A stretch of DNA of 64,000 nt from Bacteroidota bacterium (lineage in GTDB: Bacteria > Bacteroidota > Ignavibacteria > Palsa-1295): positions 140,998-204,997 of the forward strand of contig JAUZNX010000006.1 of assembly GCA_030706745.1 (NCBI GenBank), read 5' to 3'. The notes beneath the pieces were generated by a model. It ran no database searches and was not told the origin of the DNA. It was given only the letters and a program-made list of their open reading frames with translations. Of the stretch, positions 2 through 9,634 are shown in pieces (position 1 is the first letter of the stretch; each line of letters begins with the position of its first letter). A program made the translations under genes and the position numbers.

Positions 2-658
2 ATCATTATCGAGCCCATCCAGGCCGAAGGTGGCGATCACCACTTTTCGCCCGCATTCTTCCAATCGTTGCGCGAACTTGCGGACGAGAACGAAGCCATG
101 CTGATTTTCGACGAAGTGCAGACCGGCATCGGACTGACTGGGAAAATGTGGGCGCATGAGCACTTTGTCAAACCTGATCTCATGAGCTTTGGCAAAAAGA
201 CGCAAGTATGCGGATTCCTTGCCTCGAACCGCGTGGACGAGGTCCACGACAATGTCTTCCAACGCTCGAGCCGGTTGAACTCGACGTTCGGAGGCAACTT
301 GGTCGATATGCTCCGCTGCAAACGCTATCTCGAAATCATCACTGAAGAGAAACTTGTCGAGCATGCGGCGATCGAAGGCGAATTCCTGCTCGAAGAGGTC
401 GAGAAACTTGGGATGGAATTCCCCGAACTCGTTTCCGAAGCCCGCGGCCGCGGCCTGATGTGCGCGTTCGATCTGGCCGAAGCGCAAATGCGCGACCTCC
501 TAAAGGCGAAATGCTTCGAGGAAGGTCTGATTCTGATCGGCGCGGGCGACCGCTCAATTCGCTTCCGTCCGCCGCTGAACATCACACGCGAAGAACTTCA
601 GATCGGACTCAATATCATTCGGGAGCAACTCAAGGAGTTGAGTCTTAGAGATTACTAA
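2..658 (+). CDS. Class III pyridoxal-phosphate aminotransferase, C-terminal part (L-lysine 6-aminotransferase-like); 5' end lies outside the window
   Basis: The frame is open from nt 2. It translates to IIEPIQAEGG...LIFDEVQTGIGLTGKMWAHEHF...FGKKTQVCG, the class III aminotransferase signature around the PLP lysine. Stop at 658. Confidence 0.8.
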   Translation: MIIEPIQAEGGDHHFSPAFFQSLRELADENEAMLIFDEVQTGIGLTGKMWAHEHFVKPDLMSFGKKTQVCGFLASNRVDEVHDNVFQRSSRLNSTFGGNLVDMLRCKRYLEIITEEKLVEHAAIEGEFLLEEVEKLGMEFPELVSEARGRGLMCAFDLAEAQMRDLLKAKCFEEGLILIGAGDRSIRFRPPLNITREELQIGLNIIREQLKELSLRDY

Positions 659-1920: not shown

Positions 1921-3753
1921 ATGAAGCTCTTATTACGCTATCTTCGCGGATACCGCAAGCTCGTCCTACTGACGCTTGGCTTGGCGGCGGTCAATACACT
2001 GTTTTCGCTCGTCGATCCAATGATCTTCGCGCGGATTCTGGATAATTACGTCAAAAAGTTCGAGGCGCTCTCCTCCTCCGAATTCTTTGGGGGCGTGGGA
2101 CCGCTGATCCTGCTCATGATGGGCGCCGCGTTTGTCTCGCGAGTGGCCAAGAATTTTCAGGACTATTATACCAACGTCCTGACGCAGCGGCTCGGAGTCC
2201 AGATCTATAGCGAAGGCGTCGAGCATTCGCTCAAGCTGCCGTATCAGGTTTTCGAAGACCAACGAAGCGGTGAGACACTCGGGAAATTGCAGAAAGTTCG
2301 AACAGATACCGAGAAGGTTATCCAATCTGCAGTTGGCTTTGTGTTCACGACGCTCATCGGCGTTCTGTTCGTCATTGGCTATTCATTCTATGTTCACTGG
2401 AGCATTGTTCCGGCCTACTTCTTCGGAATGGCGGTGATCGGTTACATGAGTTGGGTACTCGGAAAGAAGATCAAGGCCATCCAAAAGAAGATTGTAACTC
2501 AGACAACCGCGCTTGCCGGATCCACGACAGAATCGCTCCGCAATATCGAGCTTGTCAAGAGTCTTGGACTTGCCGATCAGGAAATCCGCCGGTTGAACTC
2601 GACGACGGACAAGATTCTGCAGCTCGAACTTCAAAAGGTGAAGTATATCCGGCGCCTTAGCTTCCTGCAAGGGACTGTTGTGAACGGTCTGCGCAATGGC
2701 ATTCTGTTCCTCATGCTGTTTCTCGTGTTCACCCACGCGATCACGTATGGGCAGTTTTTCGCGCTGTACATTTATTCGTTCTTCATTTTCAGTCCGCTGC
2801 AGGAGCTTGGAAATATCATCAATACATTCCGAGAAGCCGAAGCATCACTTAGCATATTCGAAGACTTGCTGAAAATGCCAATCGAGAAAAAGCCGGAGAA
2901 GCCCGCAGCAATCGGCACGATTCAGAGTCTGGCATTCGACGAAGTCTCCTTCAAGCATCTCTCTTCCTCCAACTTCGCGCTCTCCAATATATCGTTTGAG
3001 ACTCGGCGGGGTGAGACCATTGCATTCGTCGGACCATCCGGAGCTGGCAAGACCACGCTGGTGAAGCTACTCGTCGGACTGTATCCACCGCAGGCAGGTC
3101 GAATCCTTTACAATGGAATTTCCGGGACGGATATCGACTTCGACGAACTCCGCGAGCGGATGGGAATGGTCACGCAGGATACGCAGCTCTTCAGCGGGAC
3201 CATCCGCGAGAACCTCAGATTCGTCCGGCCTGATGCGACGGATGCCGAGTGCATGGACGTGCTACAAAAAGCTTCCTGTCAAGGTCTGCTTGCCCGCGCG
3301 CCGGAGGGATTAGACACGGTGATCGGCGAAGGCGGCGTAAAAGTCTCAGGTGGTGAAAAGCAGCGACTCTCTATTGCGCGCGCCTTGCTCCGACAGCCGA
3401 ACCTGCTTGTGTTTGACGAGGCGACGTCTTCGCTCGATTCACTGACCGAAGAAGAGATCACGGAGACGATTCGCGAGGTTTCGAGCCGGACCGATCTCAT
3501 TACCGTCATGATCGCACACCGGCTTTCGACCATCATGCATGCCGACCGGATCTTCGTGCTCGAACGAGGCCAGATCGTCGAGTCGGGCCATCACGCCGAC
3601 TTGCTCGCGCTCAAAGGACTTTACTATGCCATGTGGCGTCAGCAGATTGGGGAGAGACATGCCCTCCATCCTGCGGGTGCGACTGTGACAGGTAATGGCA
3701 AGTTAATTACCGCGACTGGACGAGTCGAGCCGGTTAGCGCTGTTGCCCGCTAA
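1921..3753 (+). CDS. ABC transporter, fused permease/ATP-binding protein (MsbA/exporter type)
   Basis: N-terminal TM region, Walker A GPSGAGKTT, ABC signature LSGGEKQRLSIARAL, Walker B LLVFDEATSSLD. ATG at 1921. Confidence 0.9.
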   Translation: MKLLLRYLRGYRKLVLLTLGLAAVNTLFSLVDPMIFARILDNYVKKFEALSSSEFFGGVGPLILLMMGAAFVSRVAKNFQDYYTNVLTQRLGVQIYSEGVEHSLKLPYQVFEDQRSGETLGKLQKVRTDTEKVIQSAVGFVFTTLIGVLFVIGYSFYVHWSIVPAYFFGMAVIGYMSWVLGKKIKAIQKKIVTQTTALAGSTTESLRNIELVKSLGLADQEIRRLNSTTDKILQLELQKVKYIRRLSFLQGTVVNGLRNGILFLMLFLVFTHAITYGQFFALYIYSFFIFSPLQELGNIINTFREAEASLSIFEDLLKMPIEKKPEKPAAIGTIQSLAFDEVSFKHLSSSNFALSNISFETRRGETIAFVGPSGAGKTTLVKLLVGLYPPQAGRILYNGISGTDIDFDELRERMGMVTQDTQLFSGTIRENLRFVRPDATDAECMDVLQKASCQGLLARAPEGLDTVIGEGGVKVSGGEKQRLSIARALLRQPNLLVFDEATSSLDSLTEEEITETIREVSSRTDLITVMIAHRLSTIMHADRIFVLERGQIVESGHHADLLALKGLYYAMWRQQIGERHALHPAGATVTGNGKLITATGRVEPVSAVAR

Positions 3754-5723: not shown

Positions 5724-5731
5724 AGTTTTAG

Positions 5732-5763
5732 GTGCTAAGTGCTAAGTGCTGAGTGCTAAGTGC
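5732..5763. repeat. Heptanucleotide tandem repeat (GTGCTAA/GTGCTGA, about 4.6 copies) 8 nt upstream of the LOG gene start
   Basis: Read directly: gtgctaagtgctaagtgctgagtgctaagtgc. Confidence 0.9.
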
Positions 5764-5808
5764 GATGTACTCGTCATTGAATAACCATCCGGATGCAAGA
5801 TTCATTTG

Positions 5809-6327
5809 TTACCAAAGGATGGCCATGGAAACAGAAAGGCCAACAATGGCCTGCGCCACAAGCGCATCGCGGGCGATCAAGGCCGATCGAGGTCGGAGAA
5901 GCCCAATGGGTGTCCAGTACGCCCAGCTAATTTGATGGCTCTGCAGGCCATTATAGACCCTGTTCTCCCATGAGCCATGCGAAGGAGGATTGAGCGCATA
6001 AGCCCAACCATAATATCCGAGATCGTCGCCCCAGGTCCACCAAATTAGATTGAATGCGATCGCCGAACTCAGACCACATGTCTTGTACAAAAAATATGTG
6101 ATCGCGGCCTGCGCCACGCTCTGAATGCCATGATAGACCCACGCAATATTGTGCAACTGCCGGACATCGAGATTGAAGCCGACATAATCGAGCAATGAAA
6201 ACGCAAGTGACGAGCCAATTACATATTCGATCCGTTGCACGCGCAAGCGATCCTGGGCTCGGGTGCTGGAAGCAAGGAGCAGAAGGCAAATAGCCATGAG
6301 AAGAAAGAGGCGCAGACAATTCACCAA
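5809..6327 (-). CDS. Small secreted/membrane protein, paralog 1 of a tandem array of four (unknown family; WWTWGDDLGYYGW motif; C-terminal ...SMAILW)
   Basis: Signal-peptide-like N-terminus then AQD. About 75% identical to paralog 4. TTG start inferred. Confidence 0.6.
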   Translation of the reverse strand: MVNCLRLFLLMAICLLLLASSTRAQDRLRVQRIEYVIGSSLAFSLLDYVGFNLDVRQLHNIAWVYHGIQSVAQAAITYFLYKTCGLSSAIAFNLIWWTWGDDLGYYGWAYALNPPSHGSWENRVYNGLQSHQISWAYWTPIGLLRPRSALIARDALVAQAIVGLSVSMAILW

Positions 6328-6851
6328 AGGAATGCCAATGAAATTGAAAACCCGACGATTGCCTGAGCAACAATCGTGCTCCGTGCGATGGAACTTCCTT
6401 TTGGTCGCACCATTCCAATTGGTGTCCAGGATGCCCAGCTGATTTCGGGATTATTCCGCAAGCCGTTATCGGTCCGATTGAGCCATGGCGATGGCAAATT
6501 AAGCGCATCAGCCCAACCATAAAATGCCAGATCATCTCCCCATGTCCACCAAGTCAAATCGAAGGCGAGTGCCGCAGGCAGGCCGCAGGTCCGATACAGA
6601 AAATAATTAATGGCCACACCAAGAGAACTTTGCAGAATATGATAGACCATCAACCCCGAACTTCCGTTATCAAAGTTGAAGACGGTTCGTCCGCCGCTAT
6701 ATGCAAGAAAATCGAACAATGAAAATGCCGCCGTCGCGCCAATCACATATTCGAACCGTTGCGCACGCAAGCTATCCTGGGCTCGCACCACCTGGCCCGA
6801 GGCAATTCCAACGAGGAGAACACTAAGAACCAATTGTCGAACGGTCACCAT
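6321..6851 (-). CDS. Small secreted/membrane protein, paralog 2 (start refined to the internal ATG giving MVTVRQLVLSVLLVGIASG...)
   Basis: Same conserved blocks: WWTWGDDLAFYGW, WTPIGMVRP, C-terminal ...LAFLW. Its start abuts the stop of paralog 3. Confidence 0.6.
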   Translation of the reverse strand: MVTVRQLVLSVLLVGIASGQVVRAQDSLRAQRFEYVIGATAAFSLFDFLAYSGGRTVFNFDNGSSGLMVYHILQSSLGVAINYFLYRTCGLPAALAFDLTWWTWGDDLAFYGWADALNLPSPWLNRTDNGLRNNPEISWASWTPIGMVRPKGSSIARSTIVAQAIVGFSISLAFLW

Positions 6852-7351
6852 AAGATACTCATGGAAAGTGCAAATCCGACCGCCGCCTGACCATACAACG
6901 CGTCGCGTGGGATGATGCTGTTGGGAGGCCTCATGAGCCCGATCGGAGTCCACCCTGCCCAGCGAATCGCATTATCACGCAAGTTATTATCGAGGTTTCG
7001 ATTCGGCCATGGAGCGGCCGGATTAATTCCGAGCTGATATCCATAAAAAGCGAGATCGTCGCCCCAGGTCCACCAGACAAGATTGAACGCGATTGCCGAG
7101 TTCAGACCACAGGTCTTATACAAGAAGTAGGAAATTGCCGCTTGTGCTACAAGTTGTAGACTCCGGTAGACCACTTTGCTATTACCCGGGTGATTGTAGA
7201 TGTCGAGATTCCAGCCCAGATAATCAGCAAGCGCAAACGTCAGTGAGGCACCGACGACATACTCGATCCGCTGAACACGCGTGCTATCCTGCGCCTGCAC
7301 GTCGGTCGCCAGAAGCATTGTGAGGACGACTGGTATGATGATCGTTCTCAT
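6845..7351 (-). CDS. Small secreted/membrane protein, paralog 3 (start refined to ATG giving MRTIIIPVVLTMLLATDVQAQD...)
   Basis: Same conserved blocks. ATG at 7349–7351 confirmed on the printed sequence. Confidence 0.6.
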   Translation of the reverse strand: MRTIIIPVVLTMLLATDVQAQDSTRVQRIEYVVGASLTFALADYLGWNLDIYNHPGNSKVVYRSLQLVAQAAISYFLYKTCGLNSAIAFNLVWWTWGDDLAFYGYQLGINPAAPWPNRNLDNNLRDNAIRWAGWTPIGLMRPPNSIIPRDALYGQAAVGFALSMSILW

Positions 7352-7356
7352 AGGCT

Positions 7357-7875
7357 TCACCAGAGAATTGCCATTGAAACGGAGAATCCAACCATCGCTT
7401 GCGCAATCAAAGCATCGCGGGCGATGAGGCTGCCTGGCGGGCGCAACACACCGATGGGTGTCCAACTGGCCCACGTAATGTGATTACTTCGAAGACCATT
7501 TCCCTCCCGGTTCTCCCAAACCCCAACGCTTTGCTTCCCGGGATTGAGCGCATTCGCCCAGCCATAATAACCGAGATCATCGCCCCATGTCCACCAAATC
7601 AAATTGAATGCGATCGTCGATGGTAAGCCAAATTTTTCGTAGAGTAAATAGCTCATTCCGGCCTGTACTGAGGATTCTATGAGTCGATACCATATCGGCG
7701 CGTGACCGTTTACATTATCGACGCGAGCGAGACTATACCCGACATAATCGGCAAGCGAGAATGCGACTGATGCGCCAATGACATATCCTAAACGTGCGAA
7801 GCGCGCACTATCCTGGGCCCGCGATGGCGAGCCGAAACACAAGAGAACGAGTAGGATAACTTCAAACGACCGCAT
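7357..7875 (-). CDS. Small secreted/membrane protein, paralog 4
   Basis: MRSFEVILLVLLCFGSPSRAQD signal, same conserved blocks, C-terminal ...SMAILW. Confidence 0.6.
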   Translation of the reverse strand: MRSFEVILLVLLCFGSPSRAQDSARFARLGYVIGASVAFSLADYVGYSLARVDNVNGHAPIWYRLIESSVQAGMSYLLYEKFGLPSTIAFNLIWWTWGDDLGYYGWANALNPGKQSVGVWENREGNGLRSNHITWASWTPIGVLRPPGSLIARDALIAQAMVGFSVSMAILW

Positions 7876-7999
7876 ATTATGTCAGTACCGCGCTTCCTGC
7901 ATCGACCACTACTTTGATCGCTGCTCGTTCGGAGAAGCCATAGCGGAAGCCTCTCCTGAAGAAGTGAATAGAACCCCATGAGGAAGGATCGAGCATGCG

Positions 8000-9634
8000 C
8001 TATCGAATGATTTGAACTGCTCGGGTCTGAATGGAGCCACAAGCATGTACCGTAACAAAATAGGTCCCGCCAAACAGTTTGCTCAAATCAATATTTGTTG
8101 CGTGGTCGCCAGTGGATTGCTCGACGGCATTTATGTGCTGGGCTGGGATTCCAAGAATGTTTGTGACTTCAATTGACACGGTCGAATGATCGCACGGAAT
8201 GGAATAGTGGAGCTCGGCCGAAGATCCTTCCGCATTCAGGATGGCACTGAGAACGAAATCGTTTTGGCGCTGTAGTGGGGTGCTTGCCACGCCGGCCTGA
8301 GGGGCAAGCTTCAATACCCAGGCATCGTTGCCACCATGATTGCCAGACACGTCGCCATCGTTAGAGGATGTGTGCCCTGCAATCATATAGCCTCCATCAT
8401 TTGTGGGAATGATACAATGAAGCCATTCATAGCCACTTCCACCAAGTCGCTGCTGCCACAACAGATTACCGCTCGAATCAACTTGCATGAGCCAACCGTC
8501 AAAGCCACCATGTTGTCCGACAGCATCCGTGTCGTTGCTCAGACCGCAAATGGTGTATGAGCCATCTCGATTTTGGACGATGGACCAGAGAGCATCGACC
8601 AGTGTCCCGCCAAAGCATCGTTGCCATTGAATATTTCCGGCGGAGTCGAGCTTGAGAAACCAGCCATCCTTTGAGCCATGATTGCCAGATACATCGAAAT
8701 CATCCGACATAGCCATCCCCCCAACTGCATAGCCACCATCAGAAGTCTGAATGATGCAATTGCCCCAGTCGTTCGCGGAGCCACCATACTGTCGTTGCCA
8801 CTGGATCAACCCGCCATTATCGAGCTTACACACCCAGAGATTATAGAATGTATCTTGGCGGGGATATCCCCCCACATCACCATCGGTCGAATTCGTAAGC
8901 CCGGTCACGGCAAATCCACCATCGCGGGTCGGGATGATCGCCTGAAAGAAGTCCCGAGCAGATCCTCCGAGATAGCGTTGCCAATTGGCTGCGCCATTCG
9001 GAGCGTTGAGTTTTACCACCCAACCGTCATCATTCTGGCTGGCGCCACCGTGGTGCGCGCCCGTCTCCGGTGTCGCTGACCGGTTGTACCCGGCAAAAAC
9101 AAGCGAGCGATCCGCCTGCTCGACAATGCCCTCAGCAGCATCTTCATTCGGGCCGCCAAATACTTTCGACATCTCAATGGCACCGGTATCATCGAGCACG
9201 ATGATCCAGGCATCGCCACATCCATTGTTCATGGGCACGTCGCCATCGCTCGACTCCGCCCGAATCGCCACGGCGTACCCGCCATCTCTGGTCTGGATGA
9301 TCTGATATGCCTCTTCATTCTGCGTTCCACCGTAGCATTTTTGCCATTCCAGGTTGCCGCTGGCATCCATTTTCACCACGTAGGCGTCCTCATTTGGGCC
9401 AGTGTGATGGCGAGGAAGATCATTGGATAGGGAATACCCGCATGCCGCGTATCCTCCATCGCGGGTTTGGATAATGGAGAAGAAATAGTCATCGCTGATC
9501 GATCCAAAGCACTTTTGCCATTGAATGCTTGGCTGCGCATGGGAAAGCTTCGGCAGCAACAGCATCGCAAGACCAAGAATCGCAAAACTCAGAATTGCCC
9601 GGATAAGAGGCGTTCGAGAGAGTAAGACCATCAC
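8000..9634 (-). CDS. Secreted repeat protein (about 9 copies of an approximately 55-aa SBBP-like beta-propeller unit: ...TRDGGYA...GxSxSxDGDVxGNHGGxDGWVVKL...WQ+) with T9SS C-terminal sorting domain
   Basis: Signal peptide. Internal periodicity visible in the translation. C-terminal ...GGTYFVTVHACGSIQTRAVQIIR. Confidence 0.6.
   Translation of the reverse strand: MMVLLSRTPLIRAILSFAILGLAMLLLPKLSHAQPSIQWQKCFGSISDDYFFSIIQTRDGGYAACGYSLSNDLPRHHTGPNEDAYVVKMDASGNLEWQKCYGGTQNEEAYQIIQTRDGGYAVAIRAESSDGDVPMNNGCGDAWIIVLDDTGAIEMSKVFGGPNEDAAEGIVEQADRSLVFAGYNRSATPETGAHHGGASQNDDGWVVKLNAPNGAANWQRYLGGSARDFFQAIIPTRDGGFAVTGLTNSTDGDVGGYPRQDTFYNLWVCKLDNGGLIQWQRQYGGSANDWGNCIIQTSDGGYAVGGMAMSDDFDVSGNHGSKDGWFLKLDSAGNIQWQRCFGGTLVDALWSIVQNRDGSYTICGLSNDTDAVGQHGGFDGWLMQVDSSGNLLWQQRLGGSGYEWLHCIIPTNDGGYMIAGHTSSNDGDVSGNHGGNDAWVLKLAPQAGVASTPLQRQNDFVLSAILNAEGSSAELHYSIPCDHSTVSIEVTNILGIPAQHINAVEQSTGDHATNIDLSKLFGGTYFVTVHACGSIQTRAVQIIR

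Follow-up and report, generated by a model that had tools for sequence, protein, structure and literature searches.

Four small genes lie end to end on the minus strand of the 64-kb stretch of DNA analysed here (the window), which belongs to a Bacteroidota metagenome-assembled genome (MAG), and the question that they raise is what a family of proteins carried in four diverged tandem copies might do. The answer comes in two parts. The genes are four paralogs that very probably encode small integral inner-membrane proteins of a family that has so far gone unannotated, and this family may, as a tentative reading, be holin-like and membrane-depolarising with cellular paralogs. The second part springs from a remote relation to phage genes found near endolysins, which is new, was missed by an earlier note on this DNA (the original prediction) and is the only functional clue. 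The genes, with their lengths in amino acids (aa) and their identification from open reading frames (ORFs) and alignment, and the junctions between them, with spacers in nucleotides (nt), are as follows.

7357 to 7875, minus strand: gene A, 172 aa, the first in the array
6845 to 7351, minus strand: gene B, 168 aa, starting at ATG 7351
6321 to 6851, minus strand: gene C, 176 aa, starting at ATG 6851 or GTG 6848
5809 to 6324 or 6327, minus strand: gene D, 171 or 172 aa, starting at GTG 6324 or TTG 6327
7352 to 7360, minus strand: A/B junction, TGG TGA AGCCT ATG, with a 5-nt spacer if B starts at its ATG
6845 to 6851, minus strand: B/C junction, ATGGTGA, the start of C overlapping the Trp and stop codons of B
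6321 to 6327, minus strand: C/D junction, TTGGTGA, the start of D (GTG or TTG) overlapping the Trp and stop codons of C

The original prediction described four paralogous genes running head-to-tail, and this is borne out by the ORFs on the minus strand, by a full-length alignment with 55 invariant columns and by a family hidden Markov model (HMM) that matches A at 6e-76, B at 6e-73, C at 1e-65 and D at 2e-77 and finds no copy beyond these four across the window; the array is a real observation and lies far beyond chance. The proteins are entered at NCBI as Q8922_03695-03710 of a Bacteroidota MAG, gene A being identical to our P0021, the hypothetical protein Q8922_03710, and gene B to P0024, which is Q8922_03705; gene D is given there as a shorter product of 162 aa from an ATG start at 6297. 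Identity to gene A is 50-62% over the full-length alignment and pairwise identity over the mature part is 51-65%, gene C being the most divergent copy, and the 45-75% range quoted before was thus too wide. The invariant blocks are AQD, (E/G)YV.G, WWTWGDDL, W.WTPIG and a C-terminal LW, the last closing the hydrophobic stretch (...SMAILW) that had been noticed in all four genes and is present in each. These conserved blocks agree with the motifs previously listed save for FLYKTCGL, which takes the form FLY(K/R)TCGL in B-D and is absent from gene A, where LLYEKFGL stands in its place.

The spacing of 1-5 nt that had been claimed applies at the A/B junction, where it is 5 nt from the ATG start, whereas B and C overlap by 7 nt (ATG start) or 4 nt (GTG start) and C and D by 7 nt (TTG start) or 4 nt (GTG start). 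At all three junctions the conserved terminal Trp codon and the stop codon together read TGGTGA, and the GTG embedded in it is in frame with the downstream gene, which for gene B means an alternative start at 7360-7358 overlapping the stop of A (GTGA); a 4-nt overlap is therefore possible at every junction. Such an overlap geometry is usually associated with translational coupling or termination-reinitiation, and to judge from the sequence the four genes are probably translated as one coupled unit.

Close homologs were found in 120 clusters in a search of 5.8 billion, at 42-100% identity and all of them unnamed or "hypothetical", with Bacteroidota and Candidatus Kapabacteria/Kapaibacterium MAGs as the only taxon labels among them. 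The distribution and copy number of the family, which the original prediction had put forward as a check, were followed in one representative genome per GTDB species, where 30 genomic loci (numbered with an L) were found in MAGs labelled Kapaibacterium, Ignavibacteriae/Ignavibacteriota, Bacteroidetes and Ignavibacterium, with two labelled Chromatiales. By HMM the loci hold from one to five tandem copies (five in L004, four in the window, three in L007, two in several and one in many), and multiple copies invariably follow one another head-to-tail, a few nucleotides apart. The two Chromatiales-labelled loci, L019 and L020, are the only family genomes labelled outside the Bacteroidota/Ignavibacteriota group, and their synteny with the Bacteroidetes-labelled L021-L026 suggests mis-binning or mislabelling and not true proteobacterial members.

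The duplications had been taken to be old and maintained, a view that holds up well. In a neighbour-joining tree, which carries no bootstrap support and is a rough guide only, the four window genes do not group together and are interleaved with genes of other genomes: A falls with the genes that open the L001 and L006 arrays, B with the single gene of L005 and C with L017, L007_2 and L015_1. Copies 1 and 5 of L004 are a more recent duplicate. The duplications therefore predate the divergence of the species and were followed by differential loss. Among the window paralogs synonymous divergence (dS) is saturated (pS 0.66-0.76) and the ratio of nonsynonymous to synonymous divergence (dN/dS) is 0.12-0.23 where computable; all four copies are under purifying selection. 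Elsewhere, on MAG chromosome OY969726, the second copy of L002 (10084-10638), which is the same as that of L011 (8033-8587), is split into ORFs of 62 and 119 aa and is separated from the first copy by a gene of 493 aa; this is probably a frameshifted pseudogene and evidence of ongoing copy loss.

The family extends well beyond these close, Kapabacteria-type members. When 1.84 billion representatives were searched with a profile built from the four proteins, 149 passed E<=1e-3, and those outside the Kapabacteria type (the far members) are mostly 135-160 aa long, starting directly at the first transmembrane (TM) helix and carrying no signal peptide. An HMM built from the far members alone matches the window proteins at 1e-30 to 1e-37, so that homology holds when searched from either side.

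The libraries scanned do not recognise the family. Scans of the window proteins against Pfam-A and NCBIfam gave no credible match, PHROGs and PADLOC held nothing for the family, a sequence-profile search of the PDB had no match, and 48 far members each compared with Pfam at E<=10 revealed no recurrent weak family. Known holin families (Pfam Phage_holin_* and the PHROG lysis families) had no significant profile match among the window proteins and the 48 far members, the sole match to any holin model being one of Phage_holin_3_6 at E 3.8 in one of the 48, and Multi_Drug_Res and DMT (EamA) gave no Pfam signal even at E<=10. Similarity to solved structures or curated families (PDB, Pfam, NCBIfam, PADLOC) did not rise above noise. 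The family is genuinely new and unannotated, as the original prediction had said, and the confident match to a well-characterised family that would have told against it did not arise in Pfam, NCBIfam, PHROGs, PADLOC or PDB sequences.

As to what the proteins look like, the AlphaFold2 model of gene D (m27fba6871f55, from an alignment of 113 sequences) is all helical, with a predicted local distance difference test score (pLDDT) of 92.9 and a predicted template modelling score (pTM) of 0.80. The model has helices at 2-18 (the signal peptide), 28-57, 62-84, 86-97 with 100-112 (one helix with a kink at G-D-D) and 153-171, with an ordered loop at 113-152 where pLDDT is 90-98. The far homolog P0159 (147 aa, no signal peptide, alignment of 48 sequences) was modelled on the same plan with pLDDT 95.2 and pTM 0.89, and in both models DSSP assigns helices only, plus one two-residue bridge. 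On these models the mature protein of ~150 aa is predicted to span the inner membrane as an up-down bundle of four helices. The parts of the window proteins are as follows.

7816 to 7875, minus strand: signal peptide of gene A, residues 1-20, ...SPSRA|QD
7292 to 7351, minus strand: signal peptide of gene B, residues 1-20, ...TDVQA|QD
6780 to 6851, minus strand: signal peptide of gene C, residues 1-24, ...VVRA|QD
N-terminal part of gene D, minus strand: signal peptide ending ...STRA|QD
6157 to 6246, minus strand: TM1 of gene D, predicted helix
6076 to 6144, minus strand: TM2 of gene D, predicted helix
5992 to 6072, minus strand: TM3 of gene D, predicted helix, kinked at G-D-D
5872 to 5991, minus strand: loop of gene D with WxWTPxG, predicted to be structured
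5815 to 5871, minus strand: TM4 of gene D, predicted helix

Of the forms that had been suggested for these proteins the polytopic inner-membrane one is thus favoured, with four long hydrophobic helices in a model of high confidence. Mean Kyte-Doolittle values of the helices are moderate in the close clade (0.35-1.6) and clearly membrane-like in the far members (0.96-1.77). The topology was worked out across 121 close and 79 far members, in which lysine and arginine (K+R) number 1.3-1.9 per protein in loop 1 (plus the Y-R that opens TM2), 4.3-4.9 in loop 3 and about 0-0.3 in loop 2, which consists of three residues and is essentially uncharged. With K+R concentrated in loops 1 and 3, the positive-inside rule places the N- and C-termini in the periplasm and loops 1 and 3 in the cytoplasm, and an N-out/C-out topology is accordingly predicted. 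In about 60 of the 79 far members 0-16 residues precede TM1 and in the rest 20-43; the N-terminal signal peptide added in the close clade is predicted to impose the same N-out orientation.

That signal peptide, whose presence and AQD ending had been pointed out before, can be recognised in each of A-D. Around the predicted cleavage site the close clade has the consensus x-(R/H/K)-A|Q-D, the Q being present in 93% of its members, and a Q at +1 is the Q-rule of Bacteroidetes for substrates of signal peptidase I (PMC5837995, PMC10653852). A Sec-type signal peptide with Q at +1 fits this rule, the predicted cleavage exposing an N-terminal Gln as in the known substrates, although the proteins on which the rule is based are soluble exports, outer-membrane proteins and type IX secretion system (T9SS) proteins of Bacteroidetes proper, and what we have here is a predicted polytopic inner-membrane protein of Kapabacteria.

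A clear signature is conserved across close and far members alike. The columns kept, numbered in gene D from its GTG start, are F42, D46 (100% of close and 97% of far members), Y47, G49 and N51 in TM1; Y64-R65 (about 70-77% close, 96% far), Q68 and Q72 at the start of TM2; F91, W95-W96-T97, D101 (100% close, 99% far) and Y104-Y105 in TM3; W134-A135-x-W137-T138-P139-x-G141 in loop 3; and L155, Q158 and G162 in TM4. The conserved residues of a given helix are spaced 3-4 positions apart and therefore form a stripe on one face. Nearly all of them lie in loop 3 or in the bundle's cytoplasmic half, its periplasmic half being poorly conserved. From this we infer that the helix stripes and the structured loop of ~40 residues form a polar, acid-lined pocket or pathway open to the cytoplasmic leaflet.

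A few members depart from this simple plan in being longer fusions. P0180 (537 aa, L061 7001-8614, from a Myxococcota MAG) and P0188, both of ~540 aa, begin with a long hydrophilic region that lacks a signal peptide, continue with the four-helix core and end in a domain of ~160 aa with strand-like alternation; the N-terminal extension, if real, conflicts with an N-out topology.

Several far members lie on phage or prophage contigs, and it is these that bear on function. A peptidoglycan hydrolase is found within three genes of the family gene in four of the seven clear phage or prophage contexts (L034, L038, L062/L063 and L073), the chance of which is by a rough estimate about 9%, or one in ten, per context; coincidence is therefore unlikely. 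In L034/L035 the genes for ThyX, deformylase and ClpP are followed by those for NlpC/P60 and DPBB/RlpA-like proteins, both with N-terminal hydrophobic anchors, an 83-aa ORF and the family gene, with baseplate gp25 downstream. In L038 the family gene precedes a 99-aa ORF (N-terminal TM and coiled coil, i-spanin-like), a 123-aa ORF and an Amidase_2 endolysin. The L062/L063 arrangement, present on 20 contigs, runs from tail genes through a 54-aa ORF, a Peptidase_M15_4 endolysin (called from a weak precomputed Pfam match), a 277-aa ORF and an 82-aa ORF with two TM segments and a charged tail to the family gene, whose start overlaps the stop of the 82-aa ORF by 4 nt. Finally in L073, an IMG/VR contig of 65.6 kb, the family gene is directly upstream of an endolysin with GH108 and PG_binding_3. 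Two short phage-like contigs, L052 and L053, also have small ORFs with TM segments and charged tails or coiled coils beside the family gene.

Members of this kind are scarce in the collections searched. A tblastn search with a phage-type member and gene D against 50,697 GenBank phage records found no match, and four scans of IMG/VR yielded only two true members, L040 and L073, so the family is rare there. In two phages that are unrelated to each other, a small ORF whose product has one or more N-terminal TM segments and a charged coiled-coil tail adjoins or overlaps the family gene (L062 6596-6844 and L038 992-1291). The tails share a stretch like R-L-D-x-L-x-x-R-x-x-x-I-E, and the ORF could be a regular companion of the family gene, for instance a holin, an antiholin or an i-spanin. 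In the prophage of L060 a gene with a metallo-beta-lactamase fold and a weak match to the anti-Pycsar protein Apyc1 (860-1567) shares the early region with the family member.

If the family is holin-like, its signal-peptide-less phage members in lysis cassettes would accumulate in the inner membrane and on triggering would oligomerise, depolarising or permeabilising the membrane so that wall hydrolases could act, and the invariant intramembrane pair of Asp with the Arg, Gln and Tyr could be an ion- or proton-sensing or conducting element. The chromosomal genes of Kapabacteria would then be cellular holin-like proteins with a status analogous to that of CidA/LrgA, which might control membrane potential or permeability or the export of some solute, their one to five diverged tandem copies acting as isoforms or in mixed oligomers.

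The family would seem to work most like holins and pinholins or the proteins of the CidA/LrgA type, a comparison that we offer with less than even confidence, and it fits no known holin sequence family. Like the phage holins and pinholins (lambda S105, phage 21 S68 and the four-TM families) its members are small (135-175 aa) with several TM helices and a predicted inner-membrane location; holins are small inner-membrane proteins with at least one TM helix, and AlphaFold2, hydropathy and loop charge predict four in the window proteins of 168-176 aa. Some of the phage members, in four of the seven contexts, resemble them further in standing beside endolysins (directly upstream of GH108 in L073), in cassettes whose genes overlap and which hold small TM ORFs with charged tails or coiled coils. 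They are unlike holins in their conserved structured loop of 40 residues, in the invariant D/YR/Q/D signature, in the predicted N-out/C-out topology and in having no match to Pfam Phage_holin models or PHROGs, and the cellular members are unlike them in carrying signal peptides predicted to be cleaved and in forming tandem arrays on the core chromosome without an endolysin. CidA and LrgA are thought to be holin-related and to affect membrane permeability or solute transport; they too are chromosomal four-TM proteins of ~120-150 aa that occur as paralogous sets. However, no sequence similarity to them was detected, they are partnered with CidB/LrgB and no such partner lies beside the family genes, and in the present family the homology to phage lysis-cassette genes is real by profile E-values and not a matter of resemblance.

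A number of observations weigh against a holin-like function. A hydrophilic, highly charged C-terminal tail is typical of holins, and the family has none, the chain ending within or right after TM4 on what is predicted to be the periplasmic side; a cleavable signal peptide is also unusual for a holin. The phage cassettes of L062 and L038 hold another small TM protein that does have a charged tail, and this neighbour could be the true holin, the family gene then being an antiholin, an accessory gene or an unrelated moron. No endolysin was found near the window array or in any of the 30 genomic loci, and among the phage contexts there is no recognisable lysis gene in L036 (near SU10-type capsid and P22-type portal genes), in L040 (a viral contig of 172 kb) or in L060 (a prophage replication module with RecT, SSB, Rep_O and DnaB, GCA_037975375.1). 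The phage sample is itself small, at seven contexts with gene calls that are partly home-made. Furthermore the strong conservation of polar residues and of a structured loop, all towards one leaflet, is more suggestive of an active or binding site than the pattern in most holins.

A different view is that the proteins are small interfacial membrane enzymes, which we regard as unlikely. Here the two invariant Asp with Arg, Tyr, Gln and Thr and the WxWTPxG loop would make up a catalytic site at the interface with the cytoplasmic leaflet, maybe metal-dependent, whose substrate would be some lipid or carrier lipid that has phosphate in its head group; the phage copies would remodel the envelope and the tandem paralogs would be isoenzymes. 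Conservation that is highest in the confidently modelled loop 3 and where each of the four helices meets the cytoplasm would suit such a site, as would the invariance of the same residues from phages to Kapabacteria at 25-30% identity, and most bacterial members do stand alone among housekeeping neighbours. No link in sequence or fold to a known membrane enzyme was found, however, and there is no conserved partner nearby such as glycosyltransferases or lipid-synthesis genes. Nor, to our knowledge, are the lysis cassettes of phages known to include enzymes embedded in the membrane.

Nor is the family likely to consist of small secondary transporters or of ion channels that act as homo- or hetero-oligomers by a logic like that of the paired SMR proteins. 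The TM1 acidic and TM3 aromatic residues would bind a cation or substrate and the coupled paralogs would mix or differ in specificity, and indeed the family shares with SMR proteins four helices in a small protein, an acidic residue in TM1 (here invariant), an aromatic cluster in TM3 (W/Y) and adjacent overlapping paralogs, in genes that stand alone in their contexts. The orientation, however, is fixed by the signal peptide, which makes an antiparallel dimer of the SMR type impossible, and copy numbers of one to five between related genomes speak against an obligate fixed hetero-oligomer. The long structured loop between TM3 and TM4 and the poorly conserved periplasmic half of the bundle are also out of keeping with it, and the combination of features that marks SMR/DMT proteins (a Multi_Drug_Res/EamA profile, a conserved Glu in TM1 and the antiparallel dimer) was not found.

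A more ambitious proposal, which we consider improbable, is of a minimal acid-cored four-helix proton or cation gate shared by phages and Ignavibacteriota/Kapabacteria, that phages use to time lysis and that the bacteria have fixed as a signal-peptide-bearing, multi-paralog and hetero-oligomerising module for the regulated dissipation of membrane potential. The bacterial module could serve programmed death, abortive infection or the controlled release of material, and the family would be a holin lineage with conserved gating chemistry in the network of D46, D101, R65 and Q158.

A role as immunity or superinfection-exclusion membrane proteins is quite improbable. The phage copies would be morons that block phage DNA or membrane toxins, the Kapabacteria arrays diversified protective paralogs, and some features do lean this way: copy number varies with differential loss, one copy is pseudogenised (L002/L011), the prophage copy of L060 sits among early and replication genes, that of L053 is 1.2 kb from an integrase, and regions beside lysis cassettes are common moron sites. 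Yet the array occupies a conserved core-chromosome locus (NadA/GcvT to LOG) with no toxin, recombinase or mobile-element genes, PADLOC had no match, and whereas immunity proteins usually diverge quickly this family shows strong purifying selection and an invariant polar signature over very large distances.

The small outer-membrane beta-barrel and the soluble secreted protein, the former an option of the original prediction, are almost certainly wrong: a signal peptide, an aromatic-rich composition, a chain ending in Trp and alternation of hydrophobic and small side chains over the last 11 residues would be in their favour, but both independent AlphaFold2 models (pLDDT 93-95) are all-helical with four long hydrophobic helices and by DSSP have no strands that form an OmpA/OmpX/PagP-like barrel, most far homologs have very hydrophobic helices and no signal peptide, and many members end in L, F or other residues and not in W. 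What probability these readings leave over belongs to something else.

The surroundings of the bacterial genes differ from clade to clade. Fourteen loci of the Kapabacteria clade have a LOG-family gene after the array and 10 have NadA and GcvT before it, the window having a T9SS-type protein there instead; a second clade (L019-L026) adjoins succinyl-CoA ligase alpha, and the Ignavibacterium loci come after a tricorn-like protease and an MFS gene. Mem_trans (three) and QueF (two) alone recurred when the Pfam families of 73 neighbours of far members were compared. A conserved operon partner was considered and rejected, as the neighbours are unrelated between clades, and the adjacency to LOG is lineage synteny only, within Kapabacteria, with no functional link to the LOG or T9SS genes supported.

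In the window itself the array was said to lie between a T9SS-sorted beta-propeller protein and a LOG-family gene, and for the LOG gene this is borne out by PF03641 (1.2e-30). Upstream, the repeat protein of 544 aa at 8000-9634 (minus strand) has a signal peptide ending SHA|QP, which fits the Q-rule as those of A-D do. Its match to Por_Secre_tail (PF18962) is sub-threshold, scoring 20.3 bits (E 7e-4) where the cutoff is 27, and the Pfam scan matched no propeller family. Between it and gene A there is one further feature.

7876 to 7999, minus strand: intergenic region upstream of gene A, 124 nt

This region presumably holds the promoter of the array, and in it no sigma-70-like match, no TAnnTTTG match and no other motif was recognised. 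At the other end of the array an 85-nt spacer separates the stop of D from the start of LOG (5723), with no terminator-like hairpin detected in it and with an imperfect short tandem repeat, CACTTAGCA-CTCAGCA-CTTAGCA-CTTAGCA-CC, at 5730-5770 (minus strand). Further away, an ORF of the monodechloroaminopyrrolnitrin synthase family (PrnB-like, PF08933, 5.9e-15) at 679-1803 on the plus strand sits between an ORF at 68-658 (plus strand) and an ABC exporter at 1921-3753 (plus strand), and these genes could form a small secondary-metabolite or tryptophan-modifying locus.

What the family means depends on the lysis link. Were this link coincidental it would be one more domain of unknown function, of use for annotation but no surprise; many uncharacterised membrane families of such a kind exist. 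If the link is true, it would be a holin-like family with an unusually well-defined invariant intramembrane polar network (two Asp, Tyr-Arg and Gln) and a structured WxWTPxG loop, which would offer concrete residues to mutate in studying how membrane potential is sensed and dissipated. It would also provide labels for "hypothetical" proteins in about 120 clusters (90% identity) and about 150 representatives (50% identity), and would mean that the poorly known, uncultured Kapabacteria and Ignavibacteriota carry true cellular homologs of phage lysis-cassette genes at one to five diverged copies.

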